A stretch of DNA of 42,490 nt, from assembly GCA_029932605.1 (NCBI GenBank), contig JAOZPT010000003.1, positions 1-42,490 on the forward strand, in the 5' to 3' direction. The DNA is from Candidatus Zixiibacteriota bacterium. Lineage in GTDB: Bacteria; Zixibacteria; MSB-5A5; UBA10806; 4484-95. Position numbers: made by a program. Below are positions 1-9,000 of this stretch, piece after piece (positions within the stretch are counted from its first letter, which is position 1; each line of letters opens with the position of its first letter).

Positions 1-3000
1 TGTCTAAAACCTCCTGATAGGTGTGATATCTTTCGGGAAGGCTTTGACCTGAAGAAAGGCTAAAAGGTAAAATAATAAAAAATAACACCAACAATTTAAC
101 CCTTAGCATTAAAATACCTCCTACTGAAAGACCCTGTATTATTAAAAATACATGTAAAACATCCTGTGAACAAAGTCAAAACTCATTATATTTTATTATC
201 GGAAATCTCAAATTGAAAAATACTAATCGAATATATACGGGAGGTATTGTGTATTCAAGGTTTAATAAATGAGGGAAACATGAAACAATTGTCTTAACTT
301 CAGTAACCTTTTCAAAGTTAATGTTGAATTTCTTTAACATCGATTCCAAAACAGCAACACCGGCAAGAAGAATGCCGAAGACCAATATTATTACACCTTT
401 AGTTTTAATTTACTAACAATTCTAAAAATTGTCAATTATTAATTTAATATTAATCATCGTGTTTATTAAATTTTCCGTTGAGATTTTGTTTATAATGGCA
501 AAAGGTGTCTCCAAAAAAGCTTAAGAAAAGAGGAAACACCCCATGCTCACCAATACAAAGGAAAAATTAGCTCCGGAAGAGTTTTTAATGCCTTTGATGT
601 AGATAAGTGCCATAAACGGTATCTGGCCTTTCTGAGGAAATGGAGCAACAAATCTCCAGCAATCCAACGAATATCCTCTCGCTATGAAAACAACCTGTTT
701 CACTATTATGCCTTTCCAGAAGAGTGGCGGTATAGGTTACGGACCACTAACATGGCCGAAGGGTTCTTCAAACACCTAAAAACATTCCCGAGTCGTTACC
801 CAGGTTGTGTAAACAAAACACATGTTATCCAAATAGTTGGTACGTTCCTTAACGGGATAAGAGTCTATCGGCAAAGATATTATAAAACGTCAAGCTGTGG
901 GAGATACCTTGTTTGCAAGCCTTAACCAAATTTCAACAGAATTTGATTGCATTACTATTGACCTAAATCATTTGACATTAATATATACAATTTATAAATT
1001 AATCTGTTTTGTTGATACTACATGCTAACTGTTTTGAAAACAACGTCTGAAAGAGAGGTTTCCTAATGGTAGGAATAATCGGTTATGGAGCATATATCCC
1101 CCGGAACAGAATCAAGGTTGAGGAGATCGCCAAAATCTGGGGTGCTGATGCGCCTAGTTACAAAAGGGGTTTGATGCTCCAGGAGAAATCAGTTCCCAGT
1201 CCCGACCAGGATACTATTACCATGTCGGTTGAAGCCACAAAAAATGCTCTCAAACGTGCTGGTATCGATCCCCTGAAGATTGGAGCGGTTTATGTTGGTT
1301 CGGAATCCCATCCCTATGCTGTTAAACCGTCGGGAACAACCTTAGCCGAGGCGATTGGAGCGGTTCCCGATTGCCATTGTGCCGACTATGAGTTCGCCTG
1401 CAAAGCGGGTTCGGAGGGAATGTTTGTGGCGATGGGTCTTGTCAAAGCCGGCGAGATAGAATATGGTCTTGCAGTTGGCGCTGATACTTCACAAGGCGCA
1501 CCAGGTGATGCGCTTGAATATTCAGCCTCGGCCGGTGCAGCTGCTTTCATTTTTGGCAACGATAATATAGTTGCTGAATGCCATTATACACATTCATTCA
1601 TGACCGATACCCCTGATTTCTGGCGTCGAGAACACCAGTTTTACCCAAGGCATGCCTCACGATTCACTGGCGAACCGGCATATTTCAAACACATCATCGG
1701 CTGTGCCAAGGCGATAATGGCTAAAGCCGATATGAAACCAAGCGATTTCGACTATGTTGTGTTTCACCAGCCCAACGGTAAATTCCCAATGAATGTTGGT
1801 AAAAAACTCGGCTTTACCAAAGAACAGATTGAGCCTGGCTGGCTATGTCCGCTTTTGGGCAATACTTATTCCGGCTCATCGCCAATGGGCCTGACAGCCA
1901 CTCTGGATATCGCCAAACCGGGTGATTGGGTTCTGATGGTTTCCTATGGATCCGGCGCCGGAAGTGATGGTTTTATCTGGAAAGTCACAGAGCATATCAA
2001 CGAGGTCCGTGATAAAGCAATCAAAACCAGAACCATGCTTGAATCAGATCACAGAAAATACCTTGATTACGGCACCTACTCCAAGTTCAGGGGTAAAATC
2101 AAAAAATTAAGAGCATAATATACTTTTAACATGACAATTTTTCTGGAGGATAATAGATGAGAGATGTTGCAGTAATAGGTATCGGGATGAACAAATGGGG
2201 CGAGCTCTGGGACAAGTCTATTCGTGATCTGGTTGCAGAAAGCGCCCTTCTGGCTCTCGATGATGCTGGCATAGACAAAGTTGACTCTATGTACATAGGA
2301 ACTATGTCGTCGGGATTATTCACCGACCAGGAACATCTGGCCTCAATCGGAGCAGATTATTCCGCACTTTGCCCGATACCTTGCACCAGAGTCGAATCAG
2401 CCTGTGCCTCTGGCGGACTGGCTGTTAGGATGGGATTTATGGATGTTGCCTCGGGGATGTCTGATATAGTCATGGCAGTCGGCGTGGAGAAGATGACCGA
2501 TGTAGATGGCAACGGAGCTACGTTTGCCCTGGCTACCGCTGCTGACCAGGAATATGAAGTTTTCAACGGTGTGACATTCCCCGGCTTATATGCGATGATG
2601 GCCAACCACCACATGTATAAACATGGCACAACTCGCGACCAGTTAGCGCAGGTAGCCGTAAAAAATCATCGAAACGGCAAGAAAAATCCACTGGCTCAAT
2701 TCAGGATGGAAATCACGATAGACCAGGTTAAAAATGCTGTCATGATTGCCGACCCGCTGACGATACTGGATTGCTCACCAATCACCGATGGCTCAGCCGC
2801 AGTTATTCTGTGCTCGATGGACAAAGCTAAAGAGCTCTGCAAGAAACGTATAGTTAAAATCATCGGCTCTGGTAGTGCTACCGATACGATTCAACTTGCT
2901 CAACGCGAGGATATTTCATTTATAAAATCGACTGCTGTAGCCGCAAAAAAGGCGTTCGAAATGGCAGGTAAAAAACCCTCTGATATAGACTTCATCGAGG

Positions 3001-6000: not shown

Positions 6001-9000
6001 CTGGTGTAAACAGCTACTGCTGAATACGCCTACTATACCGGAAAAGGATGTGGGAAAATATACTGCCGAAATCATCACCAAGCTCAGGATGAGCGATGAG
6101 GGGCAGGAGGGGATGAAAGCCTTTTTTGAGAAAAGAAAACCGAAATGGTGTGAAAATTGAATATATTGGTGTTTGGATTTATATGATGGAGTAATTTTAT
6201 GTTTACAACAATCGAACAGTTCAAGGAGCTATGGAAAAAAGAATCTGAAAATACCAAAAAAATATTTTCGGCATTAACTAATGATTCCCTTAACAAGAAA
6301 GTAGCCGATGATCACCGGACTCTGGGACGAATGGCATGGCATATCGTGACGACTTTCCCGGAAATGATGAACCGCATCGGTCTTAAAGTTGAGGGGGTAA
6401 AAGAGAATGCCCCGCTACCAAAATCCGCAGACGAGATTACTAAGGCATACGAGAAGGTATCGACATCACTGATACAGCAGATCACTAAAAACTGGAATGA
6501 CGATACTCTTCAGGTTGAGGATGATATGTATGGTGAAAAATATAAACGTGGCGATTCCCTCTATATGTTACTAAGCCACGAAACCCATCACCGTGCCCAG
6601 ATGACAGTGTTAATGCGTCAGGCTGGCCTTAAAGTGCCGGGTATATATGGGCCAGCGAAAGAGGAATGGTCTCAATACGGTATGAAGGAACCAGAGGTTT
6701 AAGGTTGATTACAAGTCTGGGTCGTATTTGTTGATAAAGTAACAGATAACATGTTCAAAAAAATACTAATAGCCAATAGGGGTGAGATATCGGTAAGGGT
6801 GATACGTGCTTGCCGCGAGTTGGGAATCACCTCGGTAGCCGTCTATTCGACGGTCGACAGGGATTCTATGCATGTTCAATTAGCCGATGAAGCAGTCTGT
6901 ATTGGTGAGGCATCTCCTGAAAAGAGTTATTTAAACATCGATGCCATCATCAATGCGGCCAGGGAGACTAACGCCGAGGCTATCCATCCCGGCTACGGTT
7001 TCCTTGCCGAAAACCACCTTTTTGCAGAACGTTGCGAAACCGAAGGAATAGCCTTTATCGGACCCCATTCAAAAGCATTGAAACTGGTGGGTGATAAGGT
7101 TGCCTCACGTAAGGTGACCGAAGCTGTCGGCATACCTATCATCCCCGGTATGAAGGGTAAAAGCACCGATGTGGATGAGTGCATGGTGGAGGCTGAGAAA
7201 ATCGGTTTCCCGGTCTTATTGAAAGCCTCGGCTGGTGGTGGTGGTAAAGGAATGAGGGTTATCTATTCAAAGGATGAACTTAAAGACGCCGTTGAGGCTG
7301 GTATGCGAGAGGCAAAATCAGCTTTTGGCGACCCCTCGGTTTATCTTGAAAAATACATCGAACAGCCCCGGCATATCGAGTTCCAGATACTGGCGGATAA
7401 ATACGGCAATGCCATTCATCTTTTCGAAAGGGAATGTTCTATACAGAGAAGACATCAGAAAATTATAGAGGAAAGCCCCTCTACTGCCCTCGATGATGAC
7501 ATGAGAAAACGTATGGGCGATACTGCCCTTAAGGTTGTCAGGGTATCGGAATATTCGAACGCTGGCACGGTTGAGTTTTTAGTTGACAAAGATAAAAACT
7601 TCTATTTTCTCGAGGTTAATGCTCGCCTCCAGGTTGAACATCCGGTAACAGAACTGGTAACCGGTATCGACCTGGTTCACTCCCAGCTACGCATAGCCGC
7701 CGGAGAAAAACTCTGGTTGAAACAACATCAATTACACCAGAACGGCCACTCTATTGAATGCAGGATTTATGCTGAAGACCCTCAGCACAATTTTTTACCC
7801 TCAGCAGGGAAAATTCTGTTCATGAAAGAACCCTCGGGACCAGGGATACGTCACGATTGCGGTATATATTCGGGGTATAATGTTTCAGTTTACTATGACC
7901 CAATTCTCTCCAAGCTGATAGCGTGGGCACCAACACGTGAAACATGTTGTAAACGGGTTGCTTCCGCTCTTGCGGATTTCCCTATACTGGGAATTAAAAC
8001 CAACATCGAATTTTTGCATGACGTAATCACTCATCCTGAATTTTCAGCAGGTAACACTTTCACTGACTTCATCAGTATAAATATGGCTGACTGGCGGCCG
8101 AAATCTCTGGATCAATCCGGTTTGGCCAATGGAATTTTAGATGAGGCTCTTATAGTGGCCGCTGTTTTCTCAAGCTCTATAAAAAAAAGCAAAACCCTTC
8201 CAACTAAAACCGAGAGTATTCCCTCACCCTGGCAGACACTCGGGGAATGGCGAATCGGCATTGGATTAGATTAAAAGAATAAAAGCTACCGGAGATTTAA
8301 AATGGAGATGGAATATTTAGTCGAAGGAAAAACATATACGGTAAAAATAGATGCCGATGAAAACAGGCAGGAGAAGGCTGATTGCTTTAAAGCCACCATT
8401 GGGGAAAAACAGTACCAGTTTAATGTTGCCCCAATTTCCGACAATTGTTTTTCTTTGCTTTATGATAACAACAGTCGAATAGCTTATGTGGCTGAAGCAG
8501 AGGGACAAATATATGTCCATATTGATGGCATAACGATAAATCTCGAAGACGCCGTTTCTCAACAGAAAACGTTTTCCAGAGACAGCCTGGAGTTCGGAGT
8601 TAAAGATGAGGTCACCACATCAATGCCGGGTAAAGTAGTCAAAGTTCTTGTTAAAGAGGGTGACAAAGTGCAGGCTAAACAACCTCTGGTGATAGTTGAA
8701 TCGATGAAGATGGAAAACGAGATAAAGTCTCTGACAGATGGTTTTGTTAAATCGATACATTTTGGTCCGGGTGACCTTGTCGAACCCGGCCAACCCATCA
8801 TCAAACTTGAAGTTGACGATTAAATCCAACATTTATACTTTAACAAACCCAAATATCTTATAACCATCAAAAACTATTGACTTTGTGTATGTATATGGAT
8901 TATTTTTGTAAAGTGAGAAAGTAAAGGTATGAAAACATGGCCCGTAATGTTGCCTTCAAGTTATTTTCAATTGCAACAGGGAGTGATGACTATTGAGCAG

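Follow-up and report, generated by a model that had tools for sequence, protein, structure and literature searches.

The window analyzed in this work comprises 42,490 nt of contig JAOZPT010000003.1 (assembly GCA_029932605.1) from a Candidatus Zixiibacteriota bacterium, whose genome, termed G000 here, is 99.96% complete. Positions 1066 to 8823 are occupied by a single string of genes that all lie on the plus strand and are separated by intergenic gaps of 2 to 48 bp (Table 1). An earlier note on this DNA had stated that genes for an archaeal-type HMG-CoA synthase (HMGS), a thiolase and a DUF35 protein, together referred to as the trio, head a cluster with methylcrotonyl-CoA carboxylase (MCC) beta, a crotonase, biotin carboxylase and BCCP, and this gene content was confirmed along with its coordinates. 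Missing from that note was a DinB-family gene, which interrupts the string in G000 and occurs in none of 60 related loci. Adjacent Hdr genes were left out of the system, since they were also found in 0 of the 60 loci. The promoter candidate upstream of HMGS is the top-scoring one in the region and has to be considered weak, because the 20 promoter-like sites detected are close to the level of shuffled sequences (17.1 +/- 3.9). A scan downstream of the BCCP gene revealed no clear terminator.

Table 1. Features of the gene string and its upstream region (window positions)
Feature	Position	Strand	Basis or remark
Sigma-70-like promoter candidate, TTGACA-17-TAAATT	972..1000	+	65 bp upstream of HMGS
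Archaeal-type HMG-CoA synthase, 350 aa	1066..2118	+	Profile match; tetrad E80, C112, H234, N266
Archaeal/SCP2-type acetoacetyl-CoA thiolase, 386 aa	2157..3317	+	C83, HDCF at 283, GHP at 332
DUF35 scaffold, zinc ribbon and OB fold, 130 aa	3320..3712	+	PF01796 and PF12172; two CxxC
Predicted 3-methylcrotonyl-CoA carboxylase beta (carboxyltransferase), 535 aa	3742..5349	+	Clade scores
Crotonase-family hydratase, putative 3-methylglutaconyl-CoA hydratase, 263 aa	5369..6160	+	Substrate inferred from position
DinB-family gene, lineage-specific insertion	6199..6702	+	Outside conserved string
Biotin carboxylase subunit, 507 aa	6751..8274	+	Profile match
BCCP (biotin carboxyl carrier protein), 173 aa	8302..8823	+	ESMKM at 133

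HMGS scored 535 bits against TIGR00748 (cut-off 353) and 542 against PRK04262 (cut-off 244), and the thiolase scored 544 bits against PRK06064 (cut-off 420) and 539 bits against NF053570, which is below the cut-off of 600 of that family. The best PDB matches of HMGS and DUF35 are chains I and E of 6ESQ, respectively, and the thiolase matched 7YVY first and chain A of 6ESQ second. The HMGS tetrad aligns with E82, C114, H238 and N270, residues named in sections of PMC12960953, and its motifs are kept in all 39 HMGS sequences compared; the thiolase motifs HDCF and GHP were found in 40 of 40 sequences and E.ACASG in 38. As judged from sequence, the catalytic motifs of all three proteins are intact. 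The carboxyltransferase scored 640 to 770 bits against the MCC-beta clade, compared to 472 for geranyl-CoA carboxylase and at most 290 for the main PCC group, and from this clade placement we infer that it is MCC beta; its top structure hit is 9TPS, whose title says propionyl-CoA carboxylase. The crotonase scored 274 bits against PRK07468 and 244 against PRK05674, both below their cut-offs.

The absence of an HMG-CoA lyase from G000, also claimed previously, was upheld: family searches gave no match to PF00682, NF004283, HpcH/CitE, AtuA or class I CoA transferase. Such searches recover known families only, which limits the absence calls for lyase and reductase. Neither an acetoacetate-CoA ligase over the cut-off nor an acetate kinase was found in this genome. 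It carries BCAT, three acyl-CoA dehydrogenases and ETF, as well as an ADP-forming acetyl-CoA synthetase-like gene (558 bits, slightly below the cut-off of 567). Because the trio heads genes for leucine breakdown here and in most relatives, with the usual HMG-CoA lyase absent, it probably runs backwards and splits HMG-CoA.

The distribution of these genes was surveyed in 151 genomes of the phylum Zixibacteria, which are not phylogenetically independent, so that the following counts ignore kinship. HMGS was detected in 122 genomes, MCC in 137, HMG-CoA reductase in 20 and DXR in 138, and the trio follows MCC in its distribution, not the reductase. HMGS and MCC-beta are both present in 119 genomes and share a contig in 87; in 85 of these 87 they lie within 15 kb of each other, in 83 cases with a shared orientation and HMGS in front. 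Fourteen genomes were scored as lacking MCC. Eleven of them also lack HMGS, and in two of the remaining three a contig edge next to the trio truncates MCC-beta. In several genomes (G035, G038, G063, G089 and G101) the trio is located mid-contig, distant from MCC and with no alternative enzyme. Many tight operons consist of the trio, MCC-beta, hydratase, biotin carboxylase and BCCP with no additional genes, and 28 of 40 trio loci have catabolic neighbors, namely, acyl-CoA dehydrogenase, AtoB, Hbd/HCDH, BCAT, leucine-dehydrogenase-like or methylmalonyl-CoA mutase genes. A quick MCC tree, with 20 of its 56 inner forks unresolved, is only indicative.

These data bear on the possibility that the trio is an ordinary mevalonate supply module, in which leucine and acetyl-CoA both feed HMG-CoA into isoprenoid synthesis. 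This holds as a second role in G000, where HMG-CoA can also drain into mevalonate, as noted before, given a reductase-mevalonate kinase fusion on contig C19 and a type-2 IDI; moreover, HMGS is present in all 20 reductase genomes, and a reductase was found in 11 of the 13 genomes without DXR. As the general function it is very unlikely, and for most genomes contradicted unless they encode a non-homologous reductase, because the 122 HMGS genomes include 102 with no reductase match, every one of which possesses DXR, and 68 of the 85 linked operons occur in genomes without a reductase match. The earlier proposals that the link to MCC holds mostly without reductase, and that the trio serves leucine/isovaleryl-CoA metabolism and not mevalonate alone, are therefore well supported, the latter also by the finding that HMGS was lost together with MCC or where an alternative cleavage enzyme is present. 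Among 30 genomes outside the 151, for which completeness is not given, a reductase was absent in 27 and present in three, and neither a strong lyase nor AtuA was found.

In the 137 MCC genomes, the slot for handling HMG-CoA has three mutually unrelated kinds of occupant: the trio only in 89, the trio and AtuA in 26, AtuA only in 14, the trio and a lyase in four and a lyase only in three. The sole genome with none of these enzymes is G023, whose contig ends inside the thiolase gene. HMGS is absent in 17 of the 47 MCC genomes with AtuA or lyase versus 1 of the 90 without. AtuA, which the earlier note had missed, is thus the commonest alternative to the trio. Its gene immediately precedes that of MCC-beta in 38 of 40 genomes, 34 of the 40 belonging to one family, and holds there the place of the trio, which lies 3.5 to 99 kb from MCC in 19 AtuA genomes, whereas it is at most 2.7 kb away in 59 of 68 genomes without AtuA. 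AtuA is absent from G000 and shares neither family nor fold with the trio. Parts of PMC4847356 and PMC13689101 tentatively assign it as an acetate-releasing 3-hydroxyglutaryl-CoA lyase. Its predicted model appears to share the fold of citramalate lyase 9EVF (E 2.7e-22, TM 0.75 by target, 17% identity); a sequence search of Zixibacteria AtuA against the PDB gave no match, so this link comes from the predicted fold only. This suggests that both replacements of the trio, AtuA and lyase, are cleavage enzymes, with a putative action of AtuA on HMG-CoA, and the slot distribution offers HMG-CoA as a testable substrate for AtuA.

The lyases of 362 and 398 bits reported beside MCC were found again, in G004 and G005. 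A class I CoA transferase was detected in all seven genomes with lyase and MCC versus none of the 89 trio-only genomes, as would be expected of a trio route in which acetoacetate is never released. The objection that weaker lyase-like genes exist elsewhere is largely answered. These genes (186 to 287 bits) were rejected as HMG-CoA lyases, a promiscuous activity being possible, because of their own operon and their distance from MCC: in 11 of 12 loci fetched out of 18 they form a separate string with CoA-transferase-III and LeuC/D-type genes, seen only in part in G030, and none is near MCC. Of the 41 genomes in which no heme-copper oxidase-family gene was found, 40 have retained the trio, and all 17 MCC genomes that have lost the trio possess such a gene, as scored by PF00115, which also catches NO reductases.

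In cleavage, the operon would complete leucine/isovaleryl-CoA breakdown in the absence of HMG-CoA lyase. MCC, formed by the beta subunit, biotin carboxylase and BCCP, would carboxylate 3-methylcrotonyl-CoA at the expense of ATP, and the crotonase would hydrate the product to HMG-CoA. The latter would acylate the HMGS cysteine, and retro-aldol cleavage would yield an acetyl-enzyme and acetoacetyl-CoA, which would be channelled to the thiolase and thiolysed to two acetyl-CoA. That the trio cleaves leucine-derived HMG-CoA, with either three acetyl-CoA or two acetyl-CoA and acetate as products, is the reading we consider probable. The acetyl-enzyme may hand its acetyl group to CoA, giving three acetyl-CoA and one thioester more than the lyase and CoA-transferase route, a version that we put forward tentatively. 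Less probably, the acetyl-enzyme hydrolyses to give two acetyl-CoA and acetate, still with no need for a CoA transferase. Portions of PMC12960953 and PMC11522927 describe HMGS as the exergonic step that draws the thiolase reaction forward. If +6 kJ/mol is assumed, the calculated requirement is 0.3 mM HMG-CoA at 0.3 mM acetyl-CoA and 1 mM CoA, and 11 mM at 1 mM of both; at an assumed +15 kJ/mol, at least 11.5 mM is needed. The three-acetyl-CoA version is thus thermodynamically marginal at the HMGS energies assumed. In the reductase-bearing minority, including G000, the HMG-CoA pool would also feed mevalonate, and the trio could run forwards.

Synthesis in the opposite sense was considered as well. 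The Myxococcus alternative route to isovaleryl-CoA (MvaS, LiuC, AibA/B, AibC) employs a stand-alone bacterial-type synthase, a biotin-free decarboxylase, the CoA-transferase-like AibA/B, and a reductase. It likewise uses an HMG-CoA synthase for isovaleryl-CoA metabolism and not for mevalonate; unlike it, the operon here has a trio of archaeal type and an ATP-dependent biotin carboxylase. By analogy, three acetyl-CoA would be condensed to HMG-CoA, dehydrated by the crotonase and decarboxylated by MCC, and the isovaleryl-CoA would enter iso-fatty acids or, by carboxylation, leucine. The complex is known to work in the forward direction, all motifs are intact, the order trio, MCC, hydratase is compatible with both directions, and the trio is kept beside AtuA in 26 genomes. 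G000 also has FabH-like and 2-oxoacid:ferredoxin oxidoreductase genes and lacks canonical leucine synthesis, LeuA-type and IlvD genes not having been found; a LeuC search (TIGR00170 at 1e-60, 0 of 151 genomes) was not used as evidence on this point, because archaeal-type LeuC/HacA genes do occur but escaped detection at its threshold. However, without IlvD, G000 would rely on external branched-chain amino acids anyway, the operon retains the full ATP-dependent biotin carboxylase and BCCP, and PF01144, the CoA-transferase family that AibA/B resemble, was found neither in G000 nor in any of the 89 trio-only genomes. Furthermore, the trio was lost almost only alongside a cleavage enzyme, a pattern that would not follow from a synthetic route. 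Cleavage is favored by the occupation of the slot by AtuA or lyase, the CoA-transferase pattern and the catabolic neighbors, and the anabolic route is unlikely, although a route of this type is known in myxobacteria (reference titles in PMC9636800). Also in favor of cleavage are the gene set of G000, with BCAT, acyl-CoA dehydrogenases and ETF but no LeuA-type or IlvD genes, the retention of the trio where heme-copper oxidase-family genes are lacking, and the gene content of the 30 outside genomes.

The retention of the trio in 26 of 40 AtuA genomes and in four of seven lyase genomes, all four without reductase (G005, G025, G045 and G115) and with an unlinked trio, indicates that it may have another role. 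It might run forward into an unrecognised sink, such as a non-homologous reductase or another HMG product, with leucine-derived HMG-CoA drained there or split by an unknown lyase and the clustering reflecting a shared metabolite only. Trios distant from MCC, and the restriction of family searches to known families, are compatible with this idea. Yet no uncharacterized enzyme-like gene is conserved in the tight operons, the unlinked trio found in lyase genomes has diverged further (405 to 421 bits versus mostly 450 to 570), and the loss of the trio in 17 AtuA or lyase genomes and its co-loss with MCC in 11 argue against a separate essential sink, which makes the sink reading quite unlikely.

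Ltp2/Sal thiolase-fold aldolases depart from the thiolase Cys/His set, a departure not seen in the G000 thiolase. DUF35-bound enzymes of this fold cleave tertiary 3-hydroxyacyl-CoAs (parts of PMC12329534), and the thiolase/DUF35 pair might by this precedent be a true lyase forming acetoacetate and acetyl-CoA. This is extremely unlikely: the thiolase keeps its catalytic Cys, HDCF and GHP and is closest to the 7YVY and 6ESQ thiolases, any acetoacetate set free would have to be activated by a CoA transferase, of which the trio-only genomes have none, or a ligase, of which G000 has none over the cut-off, and the HMGS gene would be left unexplained.

Links also emerge between the trio and known systems. 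In the reversed oxidative TCA cycle, citrate synthase, taken to be irreversible, runs backwards and saves a thioester or ATP. This parallel of an 'irreversible' condensing enzyme concerns another enzyme family and pathway and is experimentally shown there, whereas reversal of the trio would be by inference. All three G000 subunits match chains of the archaeal complex (6ESQ; parts of PMC11522927 and PMC12960953) and have in common with it the E-C-H-N tetrad, the catalytic Cys, HDxF, GHx and the adjacency of the genes. By likeness to 6ESQ, the trio would assemble physically, with one CoA site shared between its subunits. Unlike the archaeal complex, the Zixibacteria trio is bacterial, in most cases coexists with the MEP pathway and not with HMG-CoA reductase, is joined to MCC and hydratase and is proposed to work in the opposite direction. 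In the Liu pathway (LiuB/D, LiuC, LiuE) and the isovalerate cluster of Desulfococcus multivorans (parts of PMC5109826), MCC beta, biotin carboxylase/BCCP and hydratase are clustered and lead to HMG-CoA as in G000, which differs in lacking HMG-CoA lyase (LiuE) and CoA transferase, in its alpha subunit split in two and in acyl-CoA dehydrogenases encoded elsewhere. PhlABC/MucABC and PfACAT/HMGS-DUF35 are also bacterial trios with other uses; PhlABC/MucABC have lost the tetrad and PhlC/MucB HDxF, whereas the G000 trio keeps both (parts of PMC12960953).

Literature searches, with most subscription journals outside reach, retrieved no publication on this operon or on the complex working in reverse. 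The main text of PMC12960953, in which 1,030 bacterial trios were mined, does not mention leucine, carboxylase or Zixibacteria, and its supplementary files other than file 4 do not mention Zixibacteria, methylcrotonyl or carboxylase. PMC6163223 was dropped, as it concerns polyketide beta-branching.

HMG-CoA synthase is regarded as a one-way committed step. It is conceivable, and we advance it with caution, that the channelled trio operates in physiological reverse (HMG-CoA + 2 CoA to 3 acetyl-CoA + water), compensating for the ATP that MCC consumes, as the main end of leucine/isovalerate degradation in Zixibacteria and several other sediment phyla; that oxidase-bearing lineages swapped it for AtuA or lyase and CoA transferase; and that bacterial 'archaeal-type' upper mevalonate modules are mostly catabolic, with mevalonate as a minority side use. 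If so, this would be a third end of leucine/isovalerate degradation, and with an ADP-forming acetyl-CoA synthetase the substrate-level yield from 3-methylcrotonyl-CoA would rise from about one to two ATP, which would matter to energy-limited sediment and digester bacteria. For annotation, a bacterial archaeal-type HMGS is no proof of a mevalonate pathway.

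The first three of the eight genes that form the operon in the window encode an archaeal-type HMG-CoA synthase (HMGS), a thiolase and a DUF35 protein, hereafter the trio, and are followed by genes for methylcrotonyl-CoA carboxylase (MCC). Gene identities and active sites could be observed directly: in the window, HMGS retains its tetrad E80/C112/H234/N266 and the thiolase its C83, HDCF and GHP motifs, and these motifs are kept in 39 of 39 HMGS and in 38 to 40 of 40 thiolase sequences. Because of these motifs, and by the criteria in PMC12960953, the trio is predicted to be a working synthase complex, and the same criteria rule out a Phl/Muc-type derivative. 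Likeness to 6ESQ suggests that the three proteins would assemble. The top match of the carboxyltransferase, 9TPS, bears the title propionyl-CoA carboxylase. MCC and the crotonase are presumed to act on the intermediates of leucine/isovalerate breakdown that lead to HMG-CoA. A DinB gene was found in none of 60 related loci, and the Hdr genes near the operon are not conserved beside it in related loci.

Features of the operon, its surroundings and related loci
Feature	Location	Content
Operon	window 1066-8823	eight genes on one strand; intergenic gaps 2-48 bp
Gene 1, HMGS		passes archaeal HMG-CoA synthase models (TIGR00748, 535 bits vs cut-off 353); best match 6ESQ chain I
Gene 2, thiolase		PRK06064-type; nearest 7YVY and 6ESQ chain A
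Gene 3, DUF35		nearest 6ESQ chain E
Gene 4, carboxyltransferase		groups with solved MCC-beta structures, well over geranyl-CoA carboxylase and the main propionyl-CoA carboxylase group
Genes 5-8		crotonase, DinB gene, biotin carboxylase, BCCP, in this order
HdrC/HdrB-like pair	window 8993-10382 (+)	downstream of operon
Hdr cluster	window 12759-19789 (-)	HdrA-like, MvhD and CCG-domain genes; apparent split of an HdrA-like gene at 14603/14619
2-oxoacid:ferredoxin oxidoreductase	window 20036-22660 (-)	alpha, beta, gamma; best model KorA-like
Extra gamma-type gene	window 23356-23940 (+)	
984-aa ORF	window 24052-27006	sole match C-terminal GlnD_UR_UTase
604-aa protein	window 32513-34327	no Pfam match at 1e-6
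Mevalonate cluster	G000 C19:14157-19475 (L001)	type-2 IDI; 766-aa fusion of class II HMG-CoA reductase with mevalonate kinase
Weak second match to HMG-CoA reductase	G000 C99:1961-3319 (L002)	34.8 bits, 453-aa ORF
Lone ketol-acid reductoisomerase-like gene	G000 C63:12188-13180	IlvD and LeuA absent from genome
AtuA, example	L016:1813-3603	single chain, 600 aa; likewise L003-L014
Interrupted MCC-beta matches	G149 C64:26920-28527; G052 C40:68307-69914	one internal TAA each, possibly marking a split gene; both genomes AtuA-only and from a single genus
Trio and strong HMG-CoA lyase	G120 C30:6587-10043 (L067)	head-on, 1.6 kb between; no MCC-beta above threshold in this fragmented genome
Weak-lyase string	L163:5911-9369; L164-L171, L173, L174	G044, G033, G104, G137, G125, G009, G108, G046, G109, G002, G111; lyase about 280 bits

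The genome carrying the window (99.96% complete) holds no HMGL-like domain of any kind and therefore neither HMG-CoA lyase nor LeuA; AtuA (PF07287), HpcH/CitE lyase, class I CoA transferase, acetate kinase, IlvD and any heme-copper oxidase-family gene were also not found in it. It encodes BCAT, three acyl-CoA dehydrogenases, AtoB, Hbd, methylmalonyl-CoA mutase and ETF, together with an ADP-forming acetyl-CoA synthetase-like gene scoring slightly below the cut-off. Both DXR and a mevalonate cluster are present. The reductase-mevalonate kinase fusion of this cluster looks general, since the remaining 19 reductase matches of the phylum sample sit in open frames of 599 to 796 aa.

This sample is an even draw of 151 genomes, 150 of them at least 90% complete; 122 encode HMGS, 137 MCC-beta, 20 HMG-CoA reductase and 138 DXR. 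HMGS and MCC-beta occur together in 119 genomes, on the same contig in 87 (85 of these within 15 kb) and on separate contigs in 32. Among the 15 separate-contig genomes for which trio loci were fetched, several loci stop at a contig edge; others, as in G035, G038, G063, G089 and G101, hold a mid-contig trio apart from MCC, so the linkage, itself a direct observation, is frequent but not absolute. DXR is present in all 102 HMGS genomes that lack the reductase, and HMGS is also absent from 11 of the 14 genomes scored as MCC-negative; two of the other three have an MCC-beta truncated by the contig end beside the trio. The trio thus tracks MCC and not the reductase, and that it serves mevalonate synthesis only, its usual purpose and one for which the window's own genome has the genes, is very improbable. 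MCC and the trio occur without reductase, AtuA or lyase in 60 genomes even when weak lyases are counted, and are linked in 43 of them.

Absence of the trio goes along with presence of one of two other enzymes. In 13 of the 14 MCC genomes with neither HMGS nor a lyase match, a 600-aa gene, AtuA, lies immediately upstream of MCC-beta; in the 14th, the contig stops inside the thiolase. AtuA was found in 40 of the 151 genomes, every one MCC-positive, and immediately upstream of MCC-beta in 38. The presence/absence table, read directly from the genomes, divides the 137 MCC genomes into trio only (89), trio and AtuA (26), AtuA only (14), trio and lyase (4), lyase only (3) and none (1). HMGS is absent from 17 of 47 MCC genomes with an alternative versus 1 of 90 without, counts that overstate independence, as the AtuA genomes come from three families (one holding 34 of the 40) and those with an MCC-linked lyase from two. 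On a quick MCC-beta tree, trio losses fall in families f9 and f6, in some of f7 and at several weakly resolved positions within f3. The trio lies 3.5 to 99 kb from MCC in AtuA-bearing genomes, and six of eight strong lyases sit 2.6 to 3.3 kb from MCC, the trio there being absent or alone elsewhere. The AtuA model (pLDDT 81.7) matches citramalate lyase 9EVF (E 2.7e-22; second match 3e-4), whose entry title names bound ADP and pyruvate. Because AtuA and lyase, its replacements, are both cleavage enzymes, this pattern points to cleavage as the job of the trio. Four genomes (G025, G045, G005 and G115; L063-L066) have a divergent stand-alone trio together with MCC, lyase and CoA transferase, and HMG-CoA reductase is absent.

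Acetoacetate released by lyase requires re-activation. All seven genomes with lyase and MCC carry a class I CoA transferase, which adjoins the lyase in two of them, G004 and G026. One of a weaker type occurs in 3 of 40 AtuA genomes, and none of the 89 trio-only genomes has one. Its absence from the trio-only genomes counts against a hidden acetoacetate-forming lyase, and an unrecognised sink or lyase is quite unlikely. The myxobacterial decarboxylase belongs to the same transferase family, so the same absence disfavours it, and anabolic synthesis of isovaleryl-CoA is unlikely. The 18 weaker lyase-like matches (186 to 287 bits) all lie apart from MCC; in 11 of 12 fetched loci the lyase heads a string with a CaiB-type CoA transferase and a LeuC/HacA-type dehydratase, whose small subunit is present in most; the G030 locus shows part of the string. 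It looks like another organic-acid pathway, for a branched hydroxy-dicarboxylic acid. In G009 and G108, a LeuB-like dehydrogenase precedes the string, and a divergent LysR-like gene also lies upstream.

PMC10562921 gives +25.2 kJ/mol for the thiolase condensation and PMC11522927 describes HMGS as pulling it via a shared CoA site. Since we estimate HMGS by analogy at about -30 kJ/mol, the reversed pair would come to about +5 (+/-10) kJ/mol. At an assumed energy of this order, it was computed to be feasible only with low acetyl-CoA/CoA and MCC raising HMG-CoA. The trio probably cleaves HMG-CoA, working in reverse. A version yielding three acetyl-CoA, which saves a thioester, has a little under an even chance. 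A hydrolytic version, yielding acetate, has a modest chance; it would be downhill given subsequent thiolysis, would require no CoA transferase and would save no thioester, and would parallel the chemistry proposed for AtuA. S. aureus HMGS reportedly (Theisen, 2004) splits HMG-CoA in vitro into acetoacetyl-CoA and acetate. That the trio is instead a thiolase-fold aldolase is extremely improbable. Of the 41 genomes that lack a heme-copper oxidase-family gene, 40 retain the trio; among MCC genomes lacking this gene, an alternative occurs in only 1 of 39, and all 17 trio-losing MCC genomes have the oxidase-family gene. This pattern fits an energy-saving role, but the oxidase family also takes in NO reductases and kinship is a confounder.

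The individual parts are already known, and no description of the trio/MCC wiring or of the proposed reverse direction was found in the literature searched. The arrangement extends beyond the phylum. Thirty loci were chosen from 80, belonging to Eisenbacteria, Aminicenantes, Edwardsbacteria, Coatesbacteria, Gemmatimonadetes, Acidobacteriota, KSB1, Eubacteriales or no named group. After the trio, 21 carry MCC-beta, seven stop too early, one is irregular and one KSB1 locus lacks MCC-beta. In these 30 genomes, whose completeness is not given, the reductase occurs in three, a weak lyase in two, and a strong lyase or AtuA in none, by the search that did find AtuA within the phylum. In Eisenbacteria, a mutase, an epimerase and a leucine-dehydrogenase-like gene lie upstream of the trio and an acyl-CoA dehydrogenase downstream.
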